NCBI GenBank assembly: GCA_002633005.1
Contig: NMRA01000352.1
Span: 96,836 to 160,835 of the forward strand
Length of the DNA stretch: 64,000 bases
Source of the DNA: Phoronis australis
Taxonomy: Eukaryota > Animalia > Phoronida
Direction: 5' to 3'
Below are positions 6,110-64,000 of this stretch, in pieces. Positions within the stretch are counted from its first letter, which is position 1, and each line of letters opens with the position of its first letter. The notes under the pieces are model-generated. The model was not told where the DNA came from. It did not search any database and saw only the letters and a program-made list of their open reading frames with translations. Both the position numbers and the translations under genes were made by a program.

Positions 6110-7213
6110 TATTAGTTGCAGTATGTCACAGTCTTGAACTATCTTCAGGGTTACAAAATAAGTCCTAAGAAAAAACACAACTACCTGAGATTACACGGAA
6201 AAGCACGAGTCCGACATCTCTCAATTTCTGGAGACTATCCAAATCTAAAGAATTTTTAGAGTAGATTATGTGGTAAGTAGCTATAAATTATTATAACCCA
6301 ACCTACTTCTGCTGGTTGTGTATCTGAAAAAATCAGGTTTGTATTACAGTGACTAAATTTTTAGTTAGGCATGGGCATACAATAAATTTCTGTTTGTCCA
6401 ATATTGGTACTTTAGTCATAGTAGATGTGCCCATGTCTGGATTATGTTGAGGTCCTAATGAAAGGTGTCATTTGAAACCAAAGCTTGATTATGGTGAACC
6501 CTAGTTACAACAACTGTATATTCATAGTTGACAAACAGAGACTGTAACATGTTGAAACCAGGGCCCGGTCTCCAATCTCCGTACTCAGACTCATACTCAT
6601 ACTCGAGATTTCATACTCAAAATCGTGCTCACTGGAGTCGTACTCAAAAAAGCGTATCTAATGTCGTATTTCGAGTAGACTCCAAACGTACTCAAATCTG
6701 ACACTCATACTCGAGTTGCTATGGAACTCTTTATGATGTGAAATNTATTAGTTGCAATATGTCACAGTCCAACATTTCGGTTCAGTCTTGAACTATCTTC
6801 AGGGTTACAAAATAAGTCCAAAGAAAAAACACTACTACCTGAGATTACACGGAAAAGCACGAGTCCAACGTCTCTCAATTTTTGGAGACTATCCAAATCT
6901 AAAGAATTTTTAGAGTAGATTATGTGCTAAGTAGTTATAAGTTATTATAATCCAACCTACTTCTGCTGGTTGTGTATCTGAAAAAATCAGGTTTGTATTA
7001 TAGTGAACTAATTTTTAGTTAGGCATGGGCATACAATAAATTTTTGTTTGTCCAAAATTGGTACTTAAGTCATAGTAGATATGCCCATGTCTGGATATCG
7101 AGGTCCCAATGAAAGGTGTCATTTGAAACCAAAGCTTGATTATGGTGAACCCCAGTTACAACAACTGTATATTCAAAGTTGACAAACAGAGACTGTAACA
7201 TGTTGAAACCAGG
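6110..7213. repeat. Near-identical direct duplication (6110-6562 / 6746-7213) across a single N; probable haplotype-overlap artefact
   Basis: Copy 2 begins immediately after the N at 6745 and differs from copy 1 only by scattered SNPs and small indels. Copy 1 runs into an insertion starting CAGGGCCC at 6559. Confidence 0.85.
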
Positions 7214-29350: not shown

Positions 29351-30519
29351 TGCTTGACCACGCAGTATTGCTCAGTGATCCAAGTTTGTGTCAGGTGAAT
29401 ATGAATTACACAGAGATTTGAAACAGTGACTTGCTTTTCGACATTCTTCAAGCATTTGCTGTGGGTGCTGATTTTTCGGTGGGTATGGATCCAATTCCCT
29501 GTCCCTTCTGCAGTTGCTTGGTGGAAATGCTACCGTCTTTCTTCACTGCTTTATGGATCTCAGATTCTACAGCTAGTGAGAGGCTGGCTTTGGATGGTTG
29601 TGAGCAGTTTCTGGCAGGCAACCTATCCGTCTTCTGTCTATAGCTTCCTTTGGCCAAATGTACAACAACTGGGCAGGACAACAATCTGACAAGCAAATTC
29701 AGCAAGAATGCTGGCACAGACTGCTACAGACCTCTCTTATGATTAAACTTGTGTGCGGGTCTTAAGTGACACTTAGGACTCAATCATAAGTCTTACTAAA
29801 TCGTGACAAGTTCAGTTAACAATGAAAGGAGTACGACAAATAAGTCATAATTCTTCAGCAAAAACAAGACATTGTGAATGTTTAGTACCAGAGTAATGTA
29901 TTAATGCCAAACTCTTTGATGCAAAAACTTGCTCATGAATTGAACGTACCGTAATATGTAACAGCTTTGATAAAACCCGATACCTACCACACTGGTGTCC
30001 AGGTGATGTCGGTGGACCACTTTTTCACTGCGATGGTGCACTGATGAGGTAGTGAATGGTTGTGCATGGCATTTAAGTGTGGTTTTATCCAATCACTTAT
30101 GTTGTACATTTTTGAAAATAAAGAAGATATAGGGTTTGGACTGGTACATTTTGAGAAGGCTTCCATCAATTTTGGAATTGTTAGAATAGAATGACGAGCC
30201 ATGTACATAGAAAAACTGGAAAAAAAGACTTGATGTACATCCCCATGTGTATAGCTCACCATTAGAAAACCAACTTTAATTTTTAATAAATACGCATTTC
30301 AACCAACAGTGCATAGAGCCCAAAAACTACAATATTTTTATTTTCCCTCCAACAATTATCCATCTGCAGATACAAAATGGGGGGCAAGTATCTCATTGAT
30401 GATAATGTTCATAGCAGGACATTGGCTGTTACATCTGGTCCATGTGCCCAATTTAAAAAAAAACGATGGTTTGATTGATAACACCAGTGAGATGTGTTCT
30501 TAATTTATGTTTTGCTATA

Positions 30520-30965
30520 TGTAATAGATTATGTATTGCGACCGCTAGATGGCGTGTTGTTTGATGTATGCTCTCTATTGTCTGAAACGTTTTGTCCTTT
30601 GGGGCTGCCGGAGACACCAATGATTTCAACAGATCGTAAGCCGTTTCACCGATAACGGCTAAAAAACAACTAACATGTTTTCCGGAGGGCAAATCATTTG
30701 CCTCGAAATATGCCTCCAATCGTTTGATGTATGAACGAAAGGTAGTTGATTCTGTTAATAGAGATATTGATCCAGTTAAAGACAACATTTTTCGACCTCG
30801 TTGCCAACTGTTAACGTTGATGATCCCAGATTCGATTCGAGTCAGTTCTTCAAAGACAAACAACAGCCATTTTTTAGGAAGCCACTTGATATCTATTTTT
30901 CAGACAATAGAGAGCGTACATCAAACAACACGCCATCTAGCGGTCGCAATACATAATCTATTACA
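30520..30965 (-). mobile_element. Gypsy-derived 446-bp fold-back mini-element (LTR-PBS-gag start-inverted LTR end), 5-bp TSD
   Basis: 68-bp inverted repeats at 30520-30587 / 30898-30965 (1 mismatch), with TGTA..TACA termini and TSD CTATA (30515-30519 / 30966-30970). On the minus strand: LTR 30965-30809 ends ..TTAACA, PBS-like TGGCAACGAGG follows, and ATG at 30788 opens a gag N-terminus (..SYIKRLEAYFEANDL..FLAVIGETAYDLLKSLVSPAAPKDKTF). Confidence 0.85.
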
Positions 30966-31493
30966 CTATATATTTATTAAATGCAGTTGGTCAATGCCAT
31001 CCAGTATTATGCATGCGTATCTATTTGGTCTAGCCCCTTGCCTTCGAGCAATGTTTGTAGTATTTTTTCTCATTGCTGAATAATAATTATAGTTTCACTA
31101 TTCAGTGGACAATTCATACTTTCATTTCTACCAGATTATAATGCAAAAACCTCAGTTATCACTCAAACGTGGGGACATTTAGAAATGAGAGTACTCCATG
31201 TATTTTCAGTTTTCCCTCCAACAATCATCCATCCGCAGATACAAAATGGGGGCAACTAACTCATTGATCATAATGTTTGCAGCAGGACATTGGTTGTTAC
31301 ATCTGTCCCCACTGCCCAATTTCAAAAAAAAAAACCGATGGTTTGGTGACCATGGTTGATAACACCAGTGAGATGTGTTCTTCATTTATGCAACTTTGGA
31401 GCATTTTGCTTTTTACATGAAACGCACGCAGATTGGTTTTCTGTTGGCCCCTTGTCTTCGAGCAATGTTTGTAGTATTTTTTTCTCGTTGCTG

Positions 31494-32541
31494 CGCCAGT
31501 AAAATATGAGTAAATGTGTGAACTCAAAATACTTGTGTTTATTTATTGCAAATGGCGAAACCGGAAGGGCTAACAAAAATAGTCAAACGAATAACTCGCG
31601 TAAAGTAATAAACGGGAAACCAATAGTGGCGTAATGTCTCTTTAAGTCCTTGAAGTAACACTTATCAGTCCTAAGAAAAAAATTAGCACAATACATGTAA
31701 TACACTTGAACTAGGATCGGTACCATCAAAGTCCAGGGAGGATACCATAACACTTAATCAACCACAAAATCCTGAAGGTAGGTTGGAGGACGTTTGGTCC
31801 TGGAAGAGCGTCGCAAAGGAACATCTCCCGTCACGTCAAGTGTACTGCTGCTAGTATGACCGGCATCATTGGTAGTGATGGGTAACCCATGGTGTAGTAG
31901 AGTATTGTCAGGACCAAGAAGATTGTCCTCAATAAATGCCATAATGCGTTGGTATAAGTCTTCCGGACGCTCATCGGGAAGAAGGCGTATTTCAGCAAAG
32001 TCCAAAAAGTGTCCACCCGACGTTTGGAACCCATAGTGAGCACGTATGGTTTGCCAGATAGAGGCAAGCGATGTTGACTGCTTAATGATGGTGTTACGTG
32101 AAATAACTGGACAAAAATTCGCGATTTGTCCCAACATTAAGTTCAGATGAGTTAGTTTTTGGGCGGCGGTTCGACGCCGCGCCTCAGGAACAATGTCCGG
32201 GTCATTGAACAACCCTCGTAGAGGGACCTTTGCCTTGTCCCAAGTAAAATCGCCTTGCAAAAAGTCAGCAAAGTTAGCGTCCAGCAATAAAACATAGGTT
32301 ATATTATGTCTCCAATTGTCGAAGGAGTTTATAGTTTCACATTTCGTCAAACACCACTGCTTGGGTGCCTTAGCCATGGTTCGTTAAGAACACGCTGCCG
32401 CCACACCAGTAAAATATGAGTAAATGTGTGAACTCAAAATACTTGTGTTTATTTATTGCAAATGGCGAAACCGGAAGGGCTAACAAAAATAGTCAAACGA
32501 ATAACTCGCGTAAAGTAATAAACGGGAAACCAATAGTGGCG
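31494..32541 (-). mobile_element. Internally deleted LTR retrotransposon with CG..CG termini and 3-bp TSD (Troyka-like Gypsy branch)
   Basis: 138-bp direct repeats at 31494-31631 and 32404-32541 are 137/138 identical. Element ends are CGCCA..TGGCG with CTG on both flanks. A PBS-like TGGCGGCAGCG (tRNA-Leu-like) follows the 5' LTR. The empty site TTGCTGAAT is visible in the paralogous repeat at ~31073. Confidence 0.8.
31754..32377 (-). CDS. 207-aa ORF of the deleted LTR element: gag-like N-terminus fused in frame to an integrase-like C-terminal tail
   Basis: [85 protein letters not shown] is a retrotransposon gag-like N-terminus. It ends [18 protein letters not shown], a typical LTR-retrotransposon pol C-terminus. 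Confidence 0.7.
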
Positions 32542-33323
32542 CTGAATGATAATTATAAATAGTTTCATTATTCAATAGACAACACTTCCTTTTAAGATAT
32601 TCATACTTTCATTTTCACCGTATTAGAATGCAAAAACCTCAGTTATCACTGAAACATGGGACATTTAGAAGTTAGAGCACTCCATGTATTTTCAGTTTTA
32701 CCACCAAGCTTTTCAAGTAAAAAAATTAAAAGCAAACTTTAATTTGACGACTAAAGGTCTACTAAGCAAATACTCACGTAGTACGATTCAAAAAGGACAA
32801 ACACGTACAATGTTGCCAATTAATAATTCCAGGATCACAGTGCGATTAGTACCAACCAGGTATGTGTGGAATTTATCATGTAAAGTGTAGTTGCGGCACA
32901 TACCTTTGTTTAGTTAGATGCGATGTGCGCATTTTTTCAAGGTGTTTCTTTCCATCTTTGTAGTGTTACCCAAATACACCTTTAATTATGAATAGATGTT
33001 GCGTTTTGCAAACCGGTTCTCCTGTAAATACAAAGTATAACTTTGTTGAATTAATATTAACTAAACTTTGTCCACAATAGTAAATCATAGCCTGTTTCTT
33101 AATGCTTTGAATGTGTTTTTTGTTTTTGTCTGAATATCATTAGCAACAACCAGACATGAATTGAATCTCATAAAATTCAGTTTTGACTTGGTGAAGATAT
33201 TTATAAATGCAAAATGCAAACAACAGTTGTGAACATGCTATGCTATATTTAAGTTGATGTTAGCAATTAACCACGCTTCTGTTTTTTCTTATTTTTGGTT
33301 AAGAATACAACTTAGCACAATAT

Positions 33324-33663
33324 TGTTTATATGTTCGTATTGTATTGTTCTTAGAAGCAGAGCCACTTTGACTTTGTCCGCTGCATTGTCTCGGTTTGTG
33401 GCTGTCAAGAAAATTTCGAAATTCCTTCGAAATCTTTTCCATTGTTCCGGCAGGTTTCCACCCTGTTTCAAGGGTTTGGGCGCTAGAAACTTAGCCGACA
33501 TTCCTCACTCAGGGCATCATGTAAATAGTTCGTGTGTCAGTGCGACGATGTTATCTGATATGTTCAACCGCTTACTTAAATGTAACTGACCACCATTGTG
33601 TCAAGAACCGGAAACTGTTTATTGTTGTGCTCCGATGAACAATACAATACGAACATATAAACA
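33324..33663 (-). mobile_element. Second Gypsy-derived 340-bp fold-back mini-element (different family), 5-bp TSD
   Basis: Perfect 27-bp inverted repeats at 33324-33350 / 33637-33663 (TGTTTATATGTTCGTATTGTATTGTTC) with TSD AATAT. On the minus strand: LTR 33663-33520 ends ..TTTACA, then PBS TGATGCCCTGAGTGAGG (tRNA-Met-like) and gag MSAKFLAPKPLKQGGNLPEQWKRFRRNFEIFLTAT..KVALLLRTI. The insertion is absent from the paralog at ~40878. Confidence 0.85.
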
Positions 33664-35651
33664 AATATATCAAAGTCAGTGTTTGGGTGAAAATTTGCAT
33701 TAGCTTATTCTTTGAGTGTGGGCCGGACTGACTTCTTCTGAGGACTTTCTATTTTATTTCATCTTTTCATCCAGTGAAAGTTTTTCCATTCTTTATCCCA
33801 CTGCTTGAACCTACCAGCCCCAACTTCTGCACCTGTTAATCAAATATGAAAATGATAAAATAATGCATTATGAATGTACACAATAGCCTTTAAGAGCCCC
33901 TCATCTTTTATATTTTGTCATCCTGTGCTTTGGGAGAAAGAACTTAAAGTTACCCTCACAAATGACACTGGTTTGATGAAAGATTTCATCTTCATTTTAA
34001 AAGTGTACGTGAGCATCAGTTACAATCAATACATAACTATAAAAAGCATCTTACCTCATCTTACCGGGCTGTAAAAACAAGAAAAATCTGTTATTTATAT
34101 TATATAAGTCTTGGGTTCAGAAGACTAAAACCAAATAGTACATCACAACATAATTTATGGAATACTTTTGTTTTTGACTTGGGTCGTTCCTCATCTGTGT
34201 CTGTCAAATCAGAAGTCAGCTCTGCAGGTGGGAGTTTCTTTCAATTTTCAATATAGTTGCAATTTTTTGGTTTTGTCGTTATTGTAATGCACTGTGTTCT
34301 CCACACTAAAACATTCCGAACTTTTTGATAATTTCTGGGGCAGTTCAATTTCAGCAAAATCTTAACTCGTTACTGCGGTGAGTCAAAACAAGTCGTGGAA
34401 AACGCTTAAACATGCCAATTTGCAAATAGAAAAATTAAATTCATGCATTACGATTAATCAAGACTTGATAAGTAGTCCTACTGTTTTCAGTAGTTGGATG
34501 TATTAAAATAACCATAATACTGTAACCACGGAAACAAAATGTCGGTCACCAAAAACTTAGTACTTGCATTGTGGTAAATAACTTCAAAAGGATTATTTTG
34601 TTGTTATATTCATAATTGTGATTTGCTTACAAATATCCCCCAAAATAGATAACGGTAACCACAAAAACTTTAAATACGTGACTGTGTTTATTTCATAATA
34701 TTAACAAAAGTGTGACATTTTAGTCAACAGACAGTTTTTCTTTTACTTCAAAATTTGTCTTTTTGACCAGTGTCATCGAGTTACATTGTTTACATGGATA
34801 TCAAATTGCTAAATATTCCATTAGCAGCAAAGGTGACCTGTCACCATGTGAGTCATGTCAGTGCTGTTAGTTTGAATTCACAGCTTTGGCCGATGCTTTT
34901 ATTTCGTCACATCAAAAGTTTGCAATTTTTCACAATGAACTTTTCACCAAATATTTTTATTAGACAGTGGTTGTTAATGATTGGAACGTTTGGAACTGCT
35001 TTCTAGAGTCCATCGTCAACAAATGATGGTTGGAGGAATTTCCCCACCGTGTTACGTCCCGGAAGCGTCACATACCGGGGTAGAAATGCAGGCTGTAGAA
35101 TGACATTATACTATAGTGTAGGCTACATGCATAGCGAAGTGACAGTGTAATGGATATATCACGTTAAGTTACAAATAATTTATAAAAGATTTATTTAAGA
35201 AATGTTCATTGTAGCTGAATGTCAAACTTTTATTGTGAAACAAATGTGTATTTGTTTATTGACATGTCTAATGTACCTGTTGGAAGTATACAATCATGAC
35301 TTTTTGATCTGGCATATCAAAATTTTCAAATGTAAAGAAGCAATTATAAAAAGGTTGCATATTTTTAATCATATTATTAGCCGCCCACTGTTTGACTGTC
35401 AGTTGGTAAGACGAAGCCATTTTATTGGACAAGGCAACGTTTCCAATAGTCCTTTCTAGTTCAAAACGGGTCTCATGATACACAGGAACCCTTAATTTAG
35501 ATACGAGTCAACTTTATCCAACATGAAAACCAAGGTGTTGTCACCCTCGTCCAGGCAATTGGGTGTTGCTCGATTTCCTTCTCTCATAAGAACTTGGAAC
35601 ACTTCCTCTTGATCAGGGCTACTCCAAACAGACTGGTTGACTGTAAGCAGG

Positions 35652-36641
35652 TTAGAAATGGTGTCCAGCATGGATGCAATTAACACCTCCAGTATTTGAT
35701 AAAAAATAATTTACATCAGGTCTTCCAGATGGCAAAAAATGATTTCTTGACGATCGAATATGATGCGTGTGCATTCTTATTTCGTCTAATTCAGTTCTCA
35801 GCAAATCCATACAAGAAAATCTACAACAGTCTATGTGTAGGGTATTCGACATGTCAATTACTACCGCATTAGCCAGCTCCTTGAAATGATCAATCCATGT
35901 TGTCATCCCTCTAGAACCGAACTTGCTCCACCAAGATTCAATTCGCTGGTTGTTAGTGGAGCATCCATATAAAAACAAAGTCTGAAGTCTAGCGCGGGAG
36001 TCATTGTTGGCACTGCGCAAGAAGGACTGCATCCGCTCAATGTGCACGTTTTCAGTACCATGATCTGACCTCACCACATTGGGCAAGCCACTGAGTTGTA
36101 TAATTGCATTTAAAATATACTGACAAACTGCGGATTGATCATTGTTTGTTGAGGTTACCTCTAACCATGAAATCCTGCGAGAAAACCCGGCAATTCCACT
36201 GTGAATACAGAAACCGAAGGGTTTCAGTTTTTCCCATCCGTTCACGTGCCAGAGATCATTTGGACCTCTGGCACAATACTGCCTTCTTTGAAGATGTCTT
36301 TGACTTCTTATTTCAACACCTGGGTCTAGGTGCTTTAGAATGACTCGCACACTGTCGCGATCACTGATGACTTGGTGTACCTTCTGTAACTTGTGCATTA
36401 CCCGATAACCAAGGTGCTTGCCGCTGCCACGTAGCTCATTTTCAGTAATGCTGATGACCCCTTGAACGGGGTCTTTGTGGTAGCACCTCCGCCTTGGCCC
36501 ATGTCTCCTTCTAACACGTTTCAACTGAACAAGGCTAAGGCAGTAATTGTGGTAAACACGCAAAAAGTCAATTATCACCTTGTATGTGAACCCCAGATGA
36601 ATGTAATACATAATCACACTCTCCGTTAAAGTCCACGCCAA
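35652..36641 (-). pseudogene. IS3EU-type integrase-core (DDE) transposase, probably inactive
   Basis: RRQYCARGPNDLWHVNGWEKLKPFGFCIHSGIAGFSRRI..TNND..VRSDHGTENV..LYGCSTNNQRIESWWS. The first catalytic Asp of WH.DG reads N, GIDGFSR reads GIAGFSR, and the C-terminus is frameshifted. Confidence 0.8.
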
Positions 36642-36778
36642 CTCTAAAAGTTAGATAAGGCACCGACATTGAAATTTAATCTGAACTTTGTTGAGTAAAA
36701 TGGCTGGCACAATTGACCTTCACCTCAAAAAATTCATCCAGTCACTAGAAAGATGAAAACAGGTGTCCGGATGAATAA

Positions 36779-37026
36779 CATTTCCACCCAGGCGGAAATA
36801 AATTCAACCTATGATGAAATAATTTCCATCCAGGTAAAAATAATTCCACCCAGGTGAAAATAATTTCCACACAGGAGAAAACTATTTCCACACGGGTGAA
36901 AATAATTTCCATCTAGGTTGAAAGAATTTCCACCGGGGTGAAAATAATTTCCATCTAGGTTGAAGCAGTTTCCACCTGGGTGAAAATAGTTTCCACCTAG
37001 GTTGAATTATTTCCTCCTAGGTGAAA
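36779..37026. repeat. ~21-bp subterminal tandem repeat (ATTTCCACCCAGGTGAAAATA)n
   Basis: About 11-12 degenerate units lie between the transposase start and the element end. Confidence 0.85.
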
Positions 37027-39118
37027 AAGGAAAAATAAAATAAACTAGAGTAGTGATGATACTTTTGGGCCACCGTATAACAGTCAGTTTTTATTCAATT
37101 GAAAACTGTTTTGATAAGACTATTTTCCAAATGATAAACAGTGGGGGACGCTCCTGCAGTTGATGTGGTTATTACCATATACATGACATGAGATGAATGT
37201 TTCTTTGGTGATGGCAAGTCAACAAATATGTATTTTTCAACACAAAGTTGCTCGTAGTTAGGCGTTATCAAGTCATTGCAAAACGTTTCTCTGTGAAAAG
37301 CAGTGTCTTTTGGGACCTGGAAAATGTATAATTCTTGTTACTGAGATCTTTTGGTAGTTCTTCTTGTGTTATAGTTTTGATATAATATACATTGTGGTCG
37401 AAACGGGAGTTTGATAAAAGACAACTATGGAAAATGTAGTCAGGGATTCTACATGAAAATAAGATATAAGTAGCAACAACATGATGTATTTCTTTAGCAT
37501 AGCCAGATATGACATCATCTTAAAATCAGAAAGTTCAGACTAGAGCAAACCAAGTTGACTTTGTACTGACTGAAGTAATCGCTTAAAAGCACATTCAGCA
37601 AATTTTAAAAACGATTTATCTTGGCTTGTGTTTTTGGAGTATGTGTCAATACTGCATGCTTTGAACTTTCACAAGTTTGACATGTTTAAACTGTCCAGAC
37701 TGAGTGAATTTCAGTAATTGGTCACTGAGGCTAACTTCATTTTAATTTAACTTGAAGTTTGTTTTGATTTGACTATAGGACTTTAATTATACTTGGTTAC
37801 AATGTAAGATGACACGTGATTCTCCGCTATGTAGTTGATGATGAGAGAACATTTATCTCAGTTGGTTTTTGCTTTCCTTTCTTGTAATAGGTTCTGCAGA
37901 AAGTGGAGGATATTAGATTGCTCACCCTGTACTCTGGGAAAGCAACAACTTCCTGCATGTGTATCGATGCTTCACATCCTCGTTTTTTCGACCCAGTGAC
38001 TCACTTGGCCTGTACATTCTGTCCGTATGCGTGATCAGTCTGTAACACCAATAGAATGAGCTCTAGGTTTAATGATGAGAAAACTTTACAAACAATCCTG
38101 ACACTGTTTACAAACCTTATGAAATCTGTGGCACTTTCAGTTGTCACAAAACACTCTTCATTAGAGTACTACTGTGTCATCACCTTCTTCACTTATGATG
38201 TATGGCAAAGTGTCACAAAGACTTGCATGATCTTGATTTGTTGTGTTCACTGAATGTTGCTCAGATGTTTTGGGATTCCATGTCCTGTTTTTGCTTTCGC
38301 CTGTTGGAGCCTTGATGACACTTAAATACTTTTGAACCCACTATAAAGAATGACACTCCATCTAACTGGTTTTCCGGTGCCCATCATCTTCAAATCTGAC
38401 TGTATGGTTACTGTGGTTGTCTGAAAAAAAAGAACACACACTCAGATTGGTAACAGTTAAGTTGTTTACAGTAGTGGTAAATTTTCTGTTTTGCATTGGG
38501 TTATGATTAACTGTGAGTCAAATTAGAAGAAAATATTGTACACCATACAAATTCCATGTGTGTAACACCTTTGGGTTCTAACAGCAGGTGTAGTTTAACT
38601 TGGAAACAGAGATTTTAACGGTCTGGGACTGGGGCACTTTTGCAAAACTGTGTGGCTGCCGTCATGGGGCTACTAGCAATCAACACAAGTCAGTAAATTA
38701 ACTACGCATCAGCCCAAAAATGTGCATGTAAGAAAGCCCACTGTAAGAAAACAGTGTGCAGTTTTCGGTACATACAAAACAAAATCAAGAATATATATAG
38801 GTAAATAAAACCACAAGAATGGATCAACTGAAATTTTCGGATATAATAACGTCCTTCGTCAACAGAAACAGAAATAAAATAAAATCAAACAGTACATAAC
38901 AACTGACATTTAAGATGTGGCGTAATGAATATGGTACATTGTTGCGGAAATAATTAAATGATATAATTTAAGAAGTTTTTATGTTTAATCCATGAGGTTC
39001 TAGTGTATTGAGCTTGTCTATCCAACTTACCGTCACCGAGTTCACATGGGCCAAATTTCCAAGTGCTTTTGACAGCCGTGTAGCTGGTTGATGTCTCTAC
39101 TTCAAATTCTTTTCCTAG

Positions 39119-39604
39119 TGTAGCGGTGGTGTTGTATGCAGCGTTGTGTTTTATGTGTGTGTGGTGGATGACCACCGGTGTCGACCTCAGTGATGGATAG
39201 ATGCTCACTCGTTTTGAAGTTTGGATATTTAAAAAGCAGGAGTAAAAGGAGATTCGAATTGATTAAAAATTCATTCTAATTTATTGATGTCGAAAATTAC
39301 AAACAATAGTTATGAGAAAGAATTTATCAGAGATTATGAAGCAACCCTAAAACTTTTAGACAAAACTATAGTAGACTTACAAGATGTCACTCATGTTTTT
39401 AAGAGTCGGACTGGAGCGGGTTTCAAACCCCAGACAGCCCGCCAAAACTGCTTGTGCGCGGCTTTTTGTAACTAAACGAATGCACGTGAGGGTGAGTCCA
39501 TGACATGAGTGACGTAATGAAACACCCCTATTAGAAGAGTCAATTAATAAAATGGCACGAAACTGTAACTCTATAATTCACAAAGGGAGGGCGCGCCCGT
39601 CGCA
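39119..39604 (-). repeat. 3' LTR of a Gypsy element (486 bp)
   Basis: Minus strand reads TGCGAC..GCTACA, preceded by a purine-rich PPT (GAGGTTGGGGGAG) and containing AATAAA. The left end coincides with the break in homology to the paralog at ~42407. Confidence 0.7.
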
Positions 39605-39856
39605 CTCCCCCAACCTCAGATATAATGTAAATTATTTAACGTAGATCAAAATTATACAGTAGTGACAGTGAGCGACAACTTCAACTCGTGATAACAAGAT
39701 ATTCAAGATATTTTAAATGACATCAATAACTCTAGTAATTCACATACACAAAGACCTGACCGGTAGGATCATAATAAAATAGAAATAAAATATCTGCATA
39801 GAAAATCACAACAATTAACTCGGAAACGATTAACAACAACAATACCAACGTAAAAC

Positions 39857-40288
39857 TTAAACACCAGTAAATGCAACTAGAGTTCTCTCCCATTCCAACA
39901 ATCGGCCTACGTCCCCACCAAACTTCTCTAACTCCACATCTTTAAATGGTGCCCTCTCTCGATAGAGCTCACCCATCCTAGTCCGCCGCTTTGCTTCCCA
40001 CACCCTCCGCCAATGGTTCTTGTTGGCTACCTCTTCTTTCCGATAGGGTATTGCAGAGTGCTGCGCCTTCCTCTGGTGGCGACGGGTCTGGTTGGCCCTA
40101 GGAGACCTGAAACCGCATGAGCAAGTGTACAAAATAGTAGTGCGGCAGCATGTCACCTCGTGGTGGATAAGCTGCGAAACCTGTGTGAATTCTTTACTAC
40201 ACTCTCTGCATCCGTATTGCCTCAAACTCTTCTCTATGATCTCCTCGTACTCTCCAGCCTCTGGATGCAATTCTCTGCAATGACTCAT
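39857..40288 (-). CDS. Extra 143-aa ORF between pol and 3' LTR with two C2H2-like zinc fingers
   Basis: The ATG lies 10 nt after the pol stop. The ORF contains YGCRECSKEFTQVSQLIHHEVTC and YTCSCGFRSPRANQTRRHQRKAQH and is uninterrupted to TAA at 39857. Confidence 0.6.
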   Translation of the reverse strand: MSHCRELHPEAGEYEEIIEKSLRQYGCRECSKEFTQVSQLIHHEVTCCRTTILYTCSCGFRSPRANQTRRHQRKAQHSAIPYRKEEVANKNHWRRVWEAKRRTRMGELYRERAPFKDVELEKFGGDVGRLLEWERTLVAFTGV

Positions 40289-40298
40289 GTAAACTGAA

Positions 40299-40795
40299 TC
40301 AAGGGGACATAAATCGAGGCGGTTTCTTAATAACTTGACCTCTCCGGGATAGATAGACATTCCTGCCCACACTTGGGGGCTCAGTGGGAATGCAGCTATC
40401 CAGATTGTTCTCGGTTTCACCACCACATTGGTTATCGGTTTCCTCACTGGGAGGATCATTTGAGTCTAAATTTAAATTGCTAAAATGATTATTTGGTTGT
40501 CGCCAGTGTCGGACATCTGAGTTAAAACAGGGCTTAAGGTGGTCTACGTGAACCGTAATCAAGGGTCCGGATCTCTCAGCTTGAATTTTATACAAAAATT
40601 CAGTTATCTTTTTAATAACGAGATAGGGCCCTCTCCAACCCAACCCTAATTTCTGATTAGCAGTGGGTGGATACCAACGAAAGACCAAATCACCCTCTTT
40701 AAACGCTCTGAGTTTAAGTTTAGAATCATAATATGACTTTTGCCTGGACGCACTTGCTTTTATTTTCTCACGAGCAAACTCATGTGTAAACATCA
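40299..40795 (-). mobile_element. Gypsy integrase C-terminal fragment (5'-truncated)
   Basis: HEFAREKIKASASRQKSYYDSK..FKEGDLV..KLGLGWRGPYLVIKKI..YKIQ..VHVDHLKP..SRRGQVIKKPPRF is a GPY/F module and SH3-like integrase tail. Confidence 0.85.
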
Positions 40796-43619
40796 ATGTG
40801 AACATGCTATGCTATATTTAAGTTGATGTTAGCAATTAACCATGCTTCTGTTTTTTCTTATTTCTGGTTAAGAATACAATATATCATACTCAGTGTTTGG
40901 GTGAAAATTTGCATTAGCTTATTCCTTGTATTTCATCTTTTCATCCAGTGAAAGTTTTTCCATTCTTTACCCCACTGCTTGAACCTACCAGTCCCAACTT
41001 GATGACTTTGGAAAATGTAGTCAGGGATTCTACATGAAAATCAGGTATGAGTAGCCACATGATGTATTCAGATATGACATCATCTTAAAATCAGAAAGTT
41101 CAGACTGGAGCAAACTAAGTTTGTACTGACTGAAGTAATCGCTTAAAAGCACATTCAGCAAATTTTTAAAAACGATTTATCCTTGCTTGTGTTTTTGGAG
41201 TATGTGTCAATACTGCATGCTATGAACTTTCACAAGTTTGACATGTTTAAATTGTCCAGACTGAGTGAATTTCAGTAATTGGTCATTGAGGCTTACTTCA
41301 TTTTAATGTATGCGTGATAAGTCTGTAATACCAATAGGATGAGCTCTAGGTTTAATGATGATAAAACATTACAAACAATACTGACACAGTTTACAAACCT
41401 TATGAAAACTGCGGCACTTTCAGTTGTCCCAAAACACTCTTCATTAGAGTACTACTGTGTCATCACCTTCTTCACTTATGATGTATGGCAAAGTGTCACA
41501 AAGACTTGCATGATCTTGATTTGTTTTGTTCACTGAATGTTGCTCAGATGTTTCGGGATTCCATGTCCTGTTTTTGCTTTCGCCTGTTGGAGCCTTGATG
41601 ACACTCCAATACTTTTGAACCCACTATAAAGAATGACACTCCATCTAACTGGTTTTCCGGTGCCCATCATCTTCAAATCTGACTGTATGGTTACTGACAG
41701 TGGTTGTCTGAAAGAAAGGAACACACACTCAGATTGGTAACAGTTTAGTTGTTTACAGTAGTGGTAAATTTTCTGTTTTGCATTGGGTTATGATTAACTG
41801 TGAGGCAAACTAGAAGAAAATATCGTACACCATACAAATTCCATGTGTGTAACATCTTTGGGTTCTGACAGCAGGTGTAGTTTAACTTGGAAACGGGGAG
41901 ATTTTAACGGTGTGCGACTGGGGCACTTTTGCAAAACTGTGTGTCTGCCGTCATGGGGCTACTAGCAATCAACACAAGTCAGTACATTAACTACTCATCA
42001 GCCCAAAAATGTGTATGTAAGAAAGCCCACTGTAACAAAACAGTGTGCAGTTTACGTTACATACAAAACAAAATCAAAAATATATATAGGTAAATAAAAC
42101 AACAAGACTGGATCAACTGAAATTTTCGGATATAATAACGTCCTTCGTCAACAGAAACAGAAATAAAGTAAAATCAAACATTATATGACAATTGACATTT
42201 AAGATGTGGCGTAATGAATATGATACATTGTTGCCGAAAAAATTAAGTGATATAATTTAAGAAGTTGTTATGTTTAATCCATGAGGTTCTAGTGTATTGA
42301 GCTTGTGTATCCAACTTACCGTCACCGAGTTCACATGGGCCAATTTCCAAGTGCTCTTGACAGCCGTGTAGCTGGTTGATGTCTCTACTTCAAAGTCTTT
42401 TACTAGATTTAATGCTGCTTGGTAATTTTCTACAAAGCCATGAAAATCACCCCAGTAGTTTTTGAAATATTTTACCCACTCTTTCTTAAGATTCATCATC
42501 ACATTCCATTGCACAAATAAATCTTAAAGTCCAGCTGATCGAATCTTGGAAACTGCTGGCTTTTGTCTTTCGTATCTTCTTGGTAAAAGAGTGTCTAGGA
42601 ATCCCACGCAGTCCAAAAATAGAATCATGATTTTCAGCCACAGATGTCATTGTTACATACCTGGATTGGCTCGTTGACATTGTTCCGCTCCCTATTTACA
42701 ATCATTTTTGACAGCTCCACCTAGTGGTAATCACTCTTATGTAAGAAAGCGACTATAATAATTGTGATCGTAAATCAAATAGGTACTTAAAAATCAGCAC
42801 AAGCACGAACACACATGGATGTACGTTGTAAGATGATTTAAATGCTACTAATATAACAATTGTAACAAATATACTTACAACAATGACGCAACACCCGCAC
42901 CCTGTGCGTCTGCCATGTTGTCTTGTCCGGCACTATTCAGTCTCGAATGGCCTTTGACAGAGTTTCTGCACGTTTACAAGGTGGCCATTACACCTTTGTC
43001 TGATTCAGAAGCCACGTAAAAGGTATGAGTTGTACTCATTTGTCTCTACAAACTCTACAATACTGCTGGGTTGCCACGTTTCTGAAACAAGTAAAGGAAG
43101 ATTACTATCAAAATAAATTCACGTGACACATAAAATTGACTTTAAAATGTTTGGTCTTTTGATACCATAACCTATAAAACAGTCGAAAGACAGTAATGTC
43201 TGACATTGCTCCAAGCTTGAAATAAAACCAACTGAGATGAAGTACATCTTTTTGAAACCAAGGAAATCCCGTTTTTTATCCTCTCAGCAATGCCATGTCA
43301 GGTTATTTTGACTCCACATAACTGTTTTACAAACACCAATTTAACATGGGCAGAGATGTTGCTGGTTTTAACCATGTAAATGCAGTAACCCAATGAACTA
43401 TATTTGGTGATGTGACCACCTTGCTATCACACCATCAGCTTGTATTCACCCACTCTTTTAAAAATATTTATTAATGACTTTATAGTTTATGGCGAAAAAT
43501 ATGTGCTTAAATCAACTACTAATTACCAGTACATTTCACATTTACTGAATTATTAAGTGGAAATATAATTTGAACTTCTTTGTATGGTAGCAAAACATTT
43601 TTAGCACTGATGTCCTACT

Positions 43620-61050: not shown

Positions 61051-64000
61051 AAACAGCACTAAGACCAGTCACCAGGTGACGACTGAGACCGTCTCGATAA
61101 CGAGTTGGCGTGGCATCTAAAAGATGGAACCCGACAAAGACTTCGATTGATCTTGTGTATGGAAAATGAAGTACATTGTATCGTATGGAATGCCAAAGGG
61201 GCTATTTTGATTTCAAAATGACTTCCCAAAAATCCTACAACGGTTTTATTTTTTTTGAAATCTTTTACAATTCGAAATGAAATGTTCTTAAAATACCAGA
61301 CCGTCTGATTCATTTTGCAATATTTTTTAGAAATCTTGGCAAGATTATTTGGAAATGTTGGCAAGATTTTTAAAAAATATTGTCAAGAACGGTTTAAGAA
61401 GTTCTAGTATTGGCGAATGATGGTGGCAAGTGAAATTGACCGAATTTCGCCGTCGGGTCTTGAATAGAAAATGTACAAAAATTTTGACCAGATTTTTAAA
61501 ATGTTGTCAACATTTTTAAATGTTTATGTGAATAGTGTCATCTTATTGGAGTGACGGTTAATCTGCAGTGTGCTGATAAAGTGTTTCAGGTGGCATCGGA
61601 ACTTTGATGATGAACTGAGCCTCACCCCAAGAAATCGCTTTCATCACGATTGTGCCCGTTTTCCTTCATTATCTGTGCTTTCCCCTTACCATGAACGGCT
61701 AAGACAGAATCCCGTCTGAGGATTTCTGGCGTAGGACCTATTTTCCATCGAGTCCTGGGCCCAGTCTCGAATCTTTTTACTCGCAATGGAACTCGAAATG
61801 TTTGGCATTTTTTAATTTACTTTTGTGCGAACTCAAGATAAGTGTCCATTACTCTATGCTCGAGTACAGAATGACTTACGTGGATGATTGATTAGTCCTA
61901 GTTTGCAGTTGATAAATCCAACACTTAAGCTAAAAGTTTGAGTTTAAACTCGAAATTTCGAGTTTTTACTCATTTGTAGCACGCATAGGCCTATAAGGGT
62001 TTTTAAGTGCAAACTTGGACTCAGAAACTCATATGCATGAACTATGTAATTATTCGAGCACAATCTGATAACCACTTATCTTGAGTTCGCAGAAAAGGAG
62101 CAGAGAAATTGCCAAAAATAATTTCCAATTCGTTTCGCGTACAAAGATTAGAGACCGGGCCCTGGGCTTTATGCCCGAGTCTGCAAGGTCGCACTGACGG
62201 CTCATTAGTCCGAAAGACGAGTTTTTTCATCGACTAAAATTTGTTAATGCACCTACTGTAAGCCGAATAGGCTTACTGTGAACAGGTAGCCGTGCCCCGT
62301 CAGGATGACAAGTGTTTGAGTAACGGAATCATGACGGACTTGCGTACATGGTTTCGGATAGACTGGGGCTAGACGTTTTGCGAGATCTAACCCCCGAACA
62401 TCCCTGGCTACGGGCCTGCTTCTCAGTAATTGTCAAAAATCGCCTATGGATCACATGATTTTTGAAGGTCATACAGAAATGTAAATCCAAAACCAAAGAA
62501 CCTTTTTGCTGTGTAAAGTTACTAGTCGGATAGTTTCTCATGTTTTGAGGACTTCACATTTGACTTAACTGGGGGTTACAAGATTTTTAAAATCCAATTC
62601 ACTGTACTCATAGCCATTTCTCGATGGCATGCCGAGCATGCTACTTGACGGGCAACTCAGTGAGAGGGCATGGAAGAAGGGCATTCCGGCCCACGGGGGT
62701 TTAGAGGCCCTAACTCAAGAAATTTGCAGTTATTAAGCGTGTTAATAGGAATTTGATTACCGTCAGGTAGTCTGCACGGAAACGGGGGCAGATTTCGCCT
62801 ACTACACCCCCCCCCCTTCCTACGGCTTTGTGTCAAAACTTGACTTTCCCTTAACTGACATTTTCCGATTATTGACTTGCCTGCAGAAAACTAAAGTATC
62901 CAAATAGTAATATTGCCTAGTTTGACGAACTCATCGCACGGTACATGTATAGTGAGCGTCGACCCTCTGAATAGTAATTTGCATGTCAGTAGCTTTTGAA
63001 TGACTGTATCTATCCTGAACCCAAGTTTGTGTAATTGCTTTAAGAGGTGGGATTTTGAACGTCATTCGTGCCACGTCGTTAGTGAGACATCAGCAAGTTT
63101 TTACGGTTCTGCTCCGACTGTGCCTATGTTACTGTTATTGATTTGTTGCGAATATCAAGCGTGCATTCACAGTGTTCTGTGATTTTATTGAGCAATTGAA
63201 AATCCTTCTCTAAATGAATGGTGGACACACCGACATTTAATCTAATTTGCATTTTTGTAAGGCTTTCCAAAGTTTTAGTTAGACGTTAGATGCTGTATTG
63301 TCCACTTTTTTTCTAGTTTTGCTGTATGTTCCATAACCTGGGCGGAAGCAATTGCTCGATCTACCGCGCCAAACTGCGACAATGGATTCACCTAACAACT
63401 CGCAAGTGAGACAAAATCCTCACGATTCATTTTGCCGCACATCTGAGGTATAACGTAGGCTCATTTGTATTCGAGGCGCAGAGACGACGTCATTCACATA
63501 TTACAACAAAGAGCACAATAATTACACAGAAGAAACTGATTAAGACAAAGAGGCCTTCTCTGCGATAGGTTTGCTACATAGAGTTCACAAGTTCAAGCCC
63601 AATCGGCAGCGTACCGGTAATGTTTGTTGGACTAACCAGCATTTTATACCCAAATGATGCTATAGGTAACGTTTCAAGTATCAGTTTTGAAGGATTTGCA
63701 ATCCAGATAATACCATTTCTCAACAGTGTTTAATAACGTAGAAAATATATCTGAAACTAAATAAGGCGATCCAGATCCTCCCAAGGATACTATTGTTTCA
63801 TGAAATGAAGAATATAAATCGGTAAATAAAACAACAAGAATGGATCAACTGAAATTTGAAATTTTCGGAGGTAACAACTTCCTTTATCAACAAAAACAGA
63901 AATAAAGTAAAATCAAACACAAAATGACAATTGACATATAAGATACGGTGTAATGAAAATGATACATTTTTGCGTAAAAAATTCAATGACATATTTTAAG

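Follow-up and report, generated by a model that had tools for sequence, protein, structure and literature searches.

Two short inserts, here called E1 and E2, lie close together in the 64-kb stretch of DNA analysed (the window), where they combine the parts of an LTR retrotransposon with the inverted ends of a DNA transposon. The question raised by this locus is how such a shape arises and whether elements that bear it spread as units. A sequence-only reading had proposed that reverse transcriptase switched template from gag back onto U3, that integrase accepted the resulting DNA with two U3 ends, and that a systematic pathway, possibly leading to MITE- or Ginger-like elements, was at work.

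Results

E1 (446 bp, 30520-30965) and E2 (340 bp, 33324-33663), both on the minus strand, start with TG, end with CA and have a common layout: an LTR, a primer-binding-site-like motif, an ATG-started piece of gag (about 66 codons in E1 and 53 in E2) and an inverted copy of the U3 tip of the insert's own LTR (Table 1). The inverted arms comprise 68 nt with one mismatch in E1 (30520-30587 and 30898-30965) and 27 nt with no mismatch in E2 (33324-33350 and 33637-33663), and 5-bp target-site duplications lie on either side, CTATA for E1 and AATAT for E2. Layout, coordinates, arms, termini and duplications all agree with what had been read from the window sequence earlier. In both inserts LTR position 1 is the first nucleotide of the short arm, which stays within the LTR, and the long arm takes in the whole LTR and the primer site, ending 150-200 nt beyond the latter. 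The second LTR copy is inverted and partial and the window holds no direct copy, which rules out an intact LTR element or a TRIM; a nested head-to-head insertion of two elements is rejected because one duplication flanks both ends. DIRS elements, which are of the tyrosine recombinase type, have inverted terminal repeats and lack an integrase-type duplication, are rejected on the Gypsy-type gag, primer site and 5-bp duplication of E1 and E2.

Table 1. Positions of the parts of E1 and E2 and of a related empty site in the window.
Feature	Position	Strand	Remarks
E1 left target-site duplication CTATA	30515..30519		single copy in X1 and X4 empty-site contigs
E1 short arm, inverted LTR positions 1-68 (U3 tip)	30520..30587	+	1 mismatch at 30569
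E1 junction, 5 nt exactly common to gag and inverted arm	30583..30587		parent gag departs at 30583
E1 5' piece of Gypsy gag	30583..30788	-	ATG at 30788
E1 primer-binding site	30796..30806	-	2 nt past LTR
E1 complete LTR, 157 bp, TG..CA	30809..30965	-	family-read loose ends at 30808/30809; polypurine tract at 30966
E1 right target-site duplication CTATA	30966..30970		X2 record 15 crosses the boundary
E2 left target-site duplication AATAT	33319..33323		bridged by contigs of X1, X3 and X4
E2 short arm, perfect inverted LTR positions 1-27	33324..33350	+	sequence comparison and contigs
E2 junction, 8 nt exactly common to gag and inverted arm	33343..33350		parent gag departs at 33343
E2 5' piece of Gypsy gag	33343..33501	-	ATG at 33501; 77% identity to P0151 over 53 aa
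E2 primer-binding site	33502..33519	-	motif
E2 complete LTR, 144 bp, TG..CA	33520..33663	-	loose ends with polypurine tract behind 33663 (X3, X4)
E2 right target-site duplication AATAT	33664..33668		window sequence
Paralogue of E2 site without element	40785..41000	+	single AATAT at 40878-40882; 10-nt indel just left

A scan of the window for TG..CA inverted arms of at least 15 nt within 3 kb, flanked by a 4-6 bp duplication, returned exactly two loci, E1 and E2. Forty 64-kb sequences simulated under an order-6 Markov model gave 39 inverted repeats of the scanned length and none that combined TG..CA with a duplication, and a chance origin of the signature is rejected. BLASTN detected no match between E1 and E2, in keeping with the claim that they come from different families; the window contained no second copy of either and no tRNA genes.

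Protein similarity indicates that E1 and E2, which belong to unrelated families, derive from Ty3/Gypsy LTR retrotransposons. All 53 aa of the E2 gag piece align, with 77% identity, to the N-terminal end of P0151, a gag-RT-RNase H-integrase polyprotein (RT at 469-625, RNase H at 690-817, integrase at 928-1086). For the E1 gag piece a profile-free full scan gave 582 protein matches at E<=0.001; all 10 that were scanned for domains have gag, protease, RT or integrase domains of retrotransposons, and P0023 and P0062 show the RT-RNase H-integrase order of P0151. Pfam alone recognised neither short gag piece, a search with the E1 gag protein among longer proteins yielded 35 candidates and none significant, an alignment of 49 gag sequences held no conserved stretch usable for locating related loci, and P0151 had no match among viral contigs. 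The gag and primer sites of the two inserts, which themselves hold no RT, presumably resemble those of the Mag clade of Gypsy, and we take the primer-binding sites to be tRNA-Ser-like in E1 and elongator tRNA-Met-like in E2.

Both parent families are present in public runs (X1-X5). In the E1 family gag runs on past 30583 in 63 X5 reads (agreement 0.96) and in one contig each of X1, X2 and X4; in the E2 family it runs on past 33343 in 8 reads and in one contig each of X1, X3 and X4. Because the parents continue normally in gag at these two positions, the inverted arm does not belong to the family structure, and the possibility that it might be, which the sequence-only reading had named as fatal to its own proposal, is rejected. 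A polypurine tract precedes the mirrored end, at 30966 in 51 X5 reads and contigs of X1, X2 and X4 for the E1 family and at 33663 in contigs of X3 and X4 for the E2 family; both ends of each insert are therefore U3 ends, as had been proposed.

The duplications proved genuine, since contigs of X1 and X4 carry an empty E1 site with a single CTATA, and the paralogue of the E2 site has a single AATAT and is seen, as a joint 33308-33664, in X1, X4 and X5. Nearby indels also distinguish both empty sites from the filled ones. Three runs from two samples each yield one contig that crosses the E2 inverted junction, always with the same flank, at depths of 42.5 (X1), 7.37 (X3) and 7.7 (X4), near those of other single contigs; at 33352 a non-E2 letter has about six times the depth of the E2 junction contigs and occupies 14 of 14 X5 reads. 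No listed contig spans the E1 inverted junction, the depth at 30552-30577 being 0 in X1, X2 and X4. Some 5-7 X5 reads on the E1 short arm have one variant in common and may stem from a sister copy elsewhere. No full-length allele was seen in the runs at either site, and no second inverted junction is listed for either family among contigs, which drop rare variants and could miss low-copy sister inserts.

The E2 junction is the only 8-nt inverted match between the E2 LTR and the retained gag. At the E1 junction the 5 exact nucleotides extend on the arm side, as judged by eye, into a 10/11 match with a 1-nt bulge, across which the LTR version is retained; E1 also offers an inverted match of 10 exact nt (LTR 40-49), which is longer and was not used. 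The chance probability is about 2e-4 for the 8 nt and 6e-3 for the 5 nt. Since LTR positions 68 (E1) and 27 (E2), and not an LTR terminus, are joined to gag, autointegration is rejected. Tan et al. report a similar length for LTR template-switch junctions, of which 25 of 29 had microhomology with a median of 6 bp (Tan et al., 2016; PMC5131818). Junctions made by host end-joining or by slippage during replication show microhomology as well.

Discussion

The account that we favour, with about even confidence, is that E1 and E2 are separate Gypsy inserts, each of which arose when an aborted U3 plus strand mis-primed on gag RNA and the family integrase inserted the product. Plus-strand synthesis would start normally at the polypurine tract and halt early, after the first 68 or 27 nt of U3. 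The 3' end of this strand would pair with gag RNA (8 bp in E2, 10/11 in E1) and be extended back through gag to the primer site, replacing the normal minus strand. An ordinary second strand transfer with full strong-stop DNA would then complete a short duplex, both ends of which would be set by removal of the polypurine tract and would be proper U3 ends, and integrase would insert this duplex in a single concerted event. During minus-strand synthesis the 5' part of gag is probably the last of the RNA to be lost, and this would account for the position of both junctions just past the primer site. The layout fits the constraints of reverse transcription in both inserts, whose ends imply that the Gypsy integrases of the two families can accept two U3 ends in vivo. 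Against this account stand the unused longer match in E1 and the absence of a listed contig across the E1 junction; in addition, some retroviral integrases are described as disfavouring U3 ends in vitro (PMC6705210).

That a template switch by reverse transcriptase took place, as proposed earlier, agrees with microhomology of the expected kind at both junctions; it is the direction, from gag to U3, that the E1 bulge modestly disfavours. In that copy-back scheme, which we consider unlikely, once the second strand transfer is over, the growing plus strand departs from gag, pairs with a loose plus-strand U3 supplied by displaced strong-stop DNA and copies it to the tip, and integrase inserts the branched product; the end product is the same and the switch runs the opposite way. 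Copy-back accounts equally for the layout constraints and the microhomology, and the exact 8 nt of E2 do not discriminate between the directions. It would have only 5 bp of 3' pairing in E1 unless a bulged heteroduplex was repaired towards the LTR, and in the usual scheme, given in outline in PMC9278108, the U3 plus strand of the molecule itself is as a rule base-paired, which makes it a poor template. Retention of the LTR version across the bulge thus modestly favours a U3 plus strand priming on gag, although only by a factor of about two, because heteroduplex repair could retain the same letters.

Quite unlikely is a scheme in which two cDNAs each supplied a U3 end to one integrase complex and end-joining or slippage at short repeats afterwards shortened the long palindrome to one long and one short arm. 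Two U3 ends, a single 5-bp duplication and microhomology would follow from it, and retroviral integrases are reported to join two separate end mimics concertedly in vitro (PMC6705210), but it gives no reason why the short arm should lie within the LTR and the long arm end 150-200 nt past the primer site, twice, and neither a U5-U5 nor a long-arm form was seen in the window. We regard as very unlikely that full-length elements were inserted and then rearranged in the chromosome, by a double fork template switch or conversion, so that the 3' part was replaced by an inverted U3 tip. Host repair leaves microhomology too and the region is rich in duplications and indels; however, one switch would have to coincide with the very end of the LTR, a point at which the two LTR ends have only about 3 nt in common, the 5-bp duplication would have to stay intact, twice, in unrelated families, and neither site shows a full allele.

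It is highly improbable that E1 and E2 belong to amplified MITE-like families whose copies travel as DNA with the help of a Ginger-type or Gypsy integrase. Much like Ginger2/Tdd (PMC2836005), they have TG..CA inverted ends and AT-rich targets, and 5-7 X5 reads on the E1 short arm are unexplained, but the E2 junction has roughly single-locus depth and one flank, all X5 reads at 33352 have the non-E2 letter, no second copy lies in the window and animal Ginger duplications are given as 4 bp (PMC2836005). Hardly credible is an assembly or library fold-back artefact at the E1 inverted junction, which could not apply to E2: the want of a spanning contig and the gap-flanking duplications typical of a short-read scaffold would suit it, whereas a chimera would not combine 5-bp duplications that match, a single mismatch between the arms and the signature confirmed in E2. 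Moreover, X2 record 15 bridges the right boundary, and E1-specific letters are absent throughout the contigs (for example at 30600, 30636 and 30711 in X1), which is what removal of a low-depth bubble path would produce.

TRIMs and solo LTRs are short non-autonomous LTR derivatives with integrase-type duplications; both have a U5 end, TRIMs have direct repeats and a retained polypurine tract and can amplify, and solo LTRs consist of one LTR. E1 and E2 differ from both in having an inverted partial repeat and no U5 end. Sabot and Schulman described complex LTR-retrotransposon insertions produced by abnormal template switching (Sabot and Schulman, 2007; PMC1950507), which are likewise abnormal reverse-transcription products inserted in a single event, as told by flanking 5-bp duplications. 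Those described there are long three-LTR fusions of two elements, whereas E1 and E2 span 340-446 bp, have one LTR and an inverted U3 tip, and use no U5 end. LTR-mediated retroposition through microsimilarity-dependent template switching also involves short junction matches (5-10 nt in E1 and E2), but the chimeras reported retain both LTRs and remain capable of further retrotransposition (Tan et al., 2016; PMC5131818); the word 'inverted' is absent from the main text of that paper. An aberrant insertion of a lentiviral vector with 24 bp of inverted 3' LTR at its end (bioRxiv 10.64898/2026.06.15.731627) resembles E1 and E2 as integrated retroviral DNA in which a short stretch of LTR lies inverted at one end; it is a single engineered case, added to a full provirus, for which the relevant passages neither identify the stretch as a U3 tip or otherwise nor offer a U3-end mechanism. 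HIV proviral inversions and asymmetric LTRs appear in the corresponding passages of PMC9278108, but not the LTR-PBS-gag-inverted-U3 layout. We found no description of such inserts in the literature searched, a search that left most subscription papers and Repbase entries outside its scope.

Ginger1 and Ginger2/Tdd share with E1 and E2 TG..CA inverted termini resembling Gypsy LTR ends, and Bao et al. speculate that the Ginger1 termini arose from two opposed LTRs (Bao et al., 2010; PMC2836005). E1 and E2 would give that idea a concrete form, although only the shape is seen. Ginger elements encode a transposase, form families and make 4-bp duplications in animals (PMC2836005), and Dictyostelium TDD-4/5 make 5-bp ones. 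E1 and E2, in contrast, hold a primer site and gag, no transposase and 5-bp duplications, and give no sign of amplification. The terminal inverted repeats and target duplication of a MITE or non-autonomous Ginger are present in both; the many copies at different sites that mark a MITE are not found for E2, with its one junction contig per run, and the duplication is not the 4 bp of animal Ginger. Without signs of re-mobilisation, the suggested route to MITE- or Ginger-like elements is unsupported. Lacking a 3' R region, E1 and E2 would not retrotranspose again, and they appear to be dead-end, single-locus by-products.

The suggestion of a systematic pathway rests on two cases, in a window chosen because it showed them. 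A primer-site pattern search over 22 of 64 parts gave 2 viral and 117 metagenome loci, of which 18 of 119 passed a filter for testable, LTR-like loci (GC <0.47, CA no more than 3 nt ahead of the site, and a minimum of 100 nt upstream and 250 nt downstream). None of these 18 had an inverted LTR copy of at least 18 nt, a weak negative as most loci were short and of unverified type. We think that two-U3-end inserts probably recur as dead-end by-products. That they are a regular output of Gypsy replication across eukaryotes, some of them founding MITE- or Ginger-like families through an integrase-type transposase, is improbable; if true, an LTR retrotransposon could become an inverted-repeat DNA transposon in a single step. 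E1 and E2 show how a retrotransposon could acquire the shape of a DNA transposon. Such inserts have no direct repeats and would therefore be missed by LTR finders, and inverted-repeat finders would file them as MITEs or Ginger remnants, so that they may be undercounted and mislabelled. Each would be a fossil of a replication intermediate, and the lengths of the short arms would map the points at which plus strands abort. A read-through transcript of E1 or E2 would be predicted to fold back, a possible small-RNA trigger against the insert's own family.

Structure of the inserts

E1 and E2, two short Gypsy-derived inserts, are separated by 2.4 kb. On the minus strand, each consists of an LTR (157 bp in E1, 144 bp in E2), a primer-binding-site motif lying 2 nt (E1) or 0 nt (E2) past it, an ATG-started piece of gag, and an inverted copy of the first 68 nt (E1) or first 27 nt (E2) of its own LTR. 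A structure scan of the whole 64 kb returned only these two matches and the same scan of 40 simulated windows returned none; the layout is confirmed and is not due to chance. The coordinates, arms and flanks that we recovered bear out the architecture, TG..CA ends and 5-bp duplications described in the sequence-only reading. The two inserts have no BLASTN similarity to each other, in keeping with its view that two unrelated families are involved, and no further copy of either occurs inside the window.

Features of the window
Feature	Coordinates	Strand	Description
E1	30520-30965 (446 bp)		inverted arms of 68 nt, one mismatch; CTATA either side; ends TG..CA
Third short retroelement insert	31494-32541	minus	between E1 and E2
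E2	33324-33663 (340 bp)		inverted arms of 27 nt, perfect; AATAT either side; ends TG..CA
Decayed ORF and adjoining repeat array	35652-37027		integrase core match in the ORF, PF24764, E 2.4e-27
3' part of another Gypsy-type element	39119-40780	minus	PF22938 integrase C-terminal piece
Imperfect inverted-repeat element	61751-62168		inner arms 61826-62091

The E2 gag piece has 77% identity to the first 53 residues of P0151, a related polyprotein whose RT, RNase H and integrase follow in Gypsy order. For the E1 piece, 582 protein matches were obtained at E<=0.001, and all 10 of those scanned carried retrotransposon gag, protease, RT or integrase domains. A Pfam search alone recognised neither short piece. 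Judged by sequence similarity, the coding pieces of both inserts are Gypsy gag. We take the E1 primer site to resemble tRNA Ser, the E2 site to resemble elongator tRNA Met, and both elements to resemble the Mag clade.

Junctions, empty sites and parent elements

The inserts were compared with public runs comprising three contig sets from sample S1, one from S2 (together X1-X4), and raw Hi-C reads from S3 (4% of the run). S1 and S2 belong to the same study, and the assembly possibly derives from S1. Each insert was compared with four of the five runs (X1, X2, X4 and the reads for E1; X1, X3, X4 and the reads for E2), and the joints and contigs described are those listed from full sets of at least 84 and at least 108 pieces, with at least 40 and at least 29 loose ends.

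In each of X1, X3 and X4 a single contig runs from the E2 flank through the duplication and the arm into gag (33282 or 33285 to 33382), with 1, 0 and 0 differing letters and depths of 42.5, 7.37 and 7.7, similar to other single contigs. The family letter at 33352 reached about six times the junction depth in these sets and was carried by 14 of 14 S3 reads. As the assembler word is longer than the 27-nt arm, a junction present at several sites would be expected to break the contig at the flank. No such break occurs in either S1 or S2, indicating that E2 is real in two samples and apparently a single locus. Among the contigs listed, none covers 30552-30577, beside the E1 junction, and E1's own letters are also absent from contigs elsewhere (30600, 30636 and 30711 in X1), as happens if assembly discards a bubble path of low depth. 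In S3, 5-6 raw reads on the short arm carry a common variant and about 7 match E1 in gag at some of its minority letters; such reads may represent an allele, a sister copy or a parent subfamily. An artefactual E1 junction seems to us very improbable. Neither family has a strand-change joint, or another LTR-to-gag joint, among the joints listed.

E1 is skipped in X1 and X4 contigs (joint 30520-30986), which hold a single CTATA and differ close by in a short TA repeat and in 16 additional letters, and X2 record 15 crosses its right boundary with 1 differing letter in 187. For E2, a paralogue within the window has one AATAT (40878-40882) adjoining a 10-nt indel. Both empty sites are therefore imperfect yet single-copy for the 5-mer, and the proposed target duplications stand.

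In the E1 family, the window sequence is left at 30583 by 63 raw reads, with an agreement of 0.96, and by a single contig each of X1, X2 and X4; they go on in other sequence that, by eye, carries the gag frame further. A polypurine tract directly precedes the end at 30965/30966 in 51 reads and in contigs of X1, X2 and X4, and loose ends at 30808/30809 represent the opposite LTR end. The E2 parent gag departs at 33343 in 8 reads and one contig each in X1, X3 and X4, with polypurine tracts before 33663 in X3 and X4. Continuing gag and a polypurine tract at the mirrored end indicate that both families exist with ordinary structure, and the tract identifies the duplicated end as U3. Because parent gag runs on past both junctions, the inverted arm does not belong to the normal structure of either family, which disposes of one of the refuting outcomes named in the sequence-only reading. 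Separately, across 30809-30897 an E1-family LTR copy in X1, X2 and X4 contigs matches from LTR position 69 onward only, beside the end of the short arm (position 68, within an A run); it is ~10% diverged in X1 and X2, and its starting point may be a coincidence or reflect a fragile site.

At the E2 junction, 8 exact nt belong to both gag and arm (33343-33350; chance at a random junction ~2e-4); they are the sole inverted 8-mer common to its LTR and retained gag. The E1 overlap is 5 exact nt (30583-30587; chance ~6e-3); by eye, the match resumes past a 1-nt bulge for another 5 nt towards the arm, where the window holds the LTR version. Another inverted exact match, of 10 nt, was left unused in E1.

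Origin of the inserts

A short target duplication around processed TG..CA ends is the product of concerted integration. The 5-bp duplications around two U3 ends thus suggest a single concerted integration of DNA with two U3 ends. There is perhaps an even chance that such DNA arose when aborted plus-strand U3 DNA mis-primed on gag RNA. Plus-strand synthesis would start at the polypurine tract, abort after 68 nt (E1) or 27 nt (E2), pair with gag RNA and extend as far as the primer site, a normal second transfer then finishing the duplex. We favour mis-priming since it needs one abnormal step and gives two authentic ends, demands a short arm within the LTR and a long arm with the primer site, as in both inserts, and retains the LTR version where the match is imperfect, as in E1. 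It also predicts junctions close to the primer site, where RNA is degraded last. The inserts have no 3' R region and would not be expected to undergo a further round of retrotransposition.

The sequence-only reading had RT on the plus strand switch from gag onto plus-strand U3 and copy to its tip. This route is possible and only modestly less favoured: it yields the same product, and the layout and microhomology agree with it, while the LTR version kept in E1 inclines us to mis-priming. Integration of two cDNAs, with the palindrome trimmed later, is feasible yet doubtful; the available text of one study has retroviral integrases joining two separate end mimics in vitro (PMC6705210), but this reading does not predict the arm geometry. 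The same text gives HTLV-1, HIV-1 and SIV integrases a preference for U5, so that not every integrase need insert U3-U3 DNA efficiently. Chromosomal rearrangement of an inserted element is improbable, and an amplified MITE-like family more so, for the inserts look like MITEs but E2 is apparently single-copy. Autointegration was rejected, the junctions being internal to U3.

E1 and E2 behave like aberrant Gypsy cDNA inserts. In the portions available, earlier reports describe abnormal template switching with one integration and a 5-bp duplication in three-LTR complexes (PMC1950507), microsimilarity at switch points (PMC5131818), HIV proviruses with inversions or asymmetric LTRs (PMC9278108), and a lentiviral insert ending in 24 bp of inverted LTR, which may or may not be a U3 tip (bioRxiv 10.64898/2026.06.15.731627). 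No description of the present layout was found in the literature covered, which is sparse in subscription papers, older retrovirology and Repbase reports.

The same layout occurs in two unrelated Gypsy families within 3.1 kb and in two of the four recognised Gypsy-type pieces, in a window singled out for it, so that no rate follows. In a weak outside test, none of 18 testable primer-site loci (from 119 fetched) had an inverted LTR copy. Opposed LTRs have been proposed as a possible origin of Ginger1 termini (Bao et al., 2010; PMC2836005, available text). A route by which LTR elements become inverted-repeat DNA transposons, suggested earlier for these inserts, is unlikely, and nothing here speaks for it. 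E2 is apparently confined to one locus, and the duplications are 5 bp rather than the 4 bp of animal Ginger elements. E1 and E2 are real and well-defined replication by-products, apparently single-locus in the case of E2, and probably dead ends. They provide a clean natural record of two-U3-end integration and make plus-strand mis-priming testable from genomes.

Other features of the window

The third insert has two identical 136-bp direct repeats (31496-31631 and 32406-32541), with a motif resembling a primer site at 32403 and a single ORF of 207 codons. The ORF looks gag-like at its start (Atlas matches to gag families score only 0.80-0.83, a lead), had no Pfam match, and presumably resembles a Gypsy integrase C-terminus in its tail. 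With ends other than TG..CA and a duplication of only 3-4 bp, it is possibly a further aberrant cDNA whose ends were not processed in the usual way before insertion. Like E1, it occupies one unit of a decayed host tandem duplication (30333-32707; unit ~870 bp, pieces 77-94% identical).

In the other Gypsy-type element, an additional ORF weakly matches a C2H2 finger, a polypurine run lies near 39610, and a stretch resembling an LTR ends at 39119. The element breaks one copy of a 1.1-kb duplication (38025-39118 / 41308-42406). The decayed ORF, adjoined by an array of short tandem and inverted repeats (36772-37027), is probably a DNA transposon remnant. The four single N letters, at 6745, 17013, 44871 and 53750, are all remote from E1 and E2. 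Each is bordered by duplicated stretches that are 430-730 bp long and nearly identical, which points to overlaps left uncollapsed in short-read scaffolding. The imperfect inverted-repeat element, without TG..CA ends and duplication, is likely an ordinary MITE remnant.
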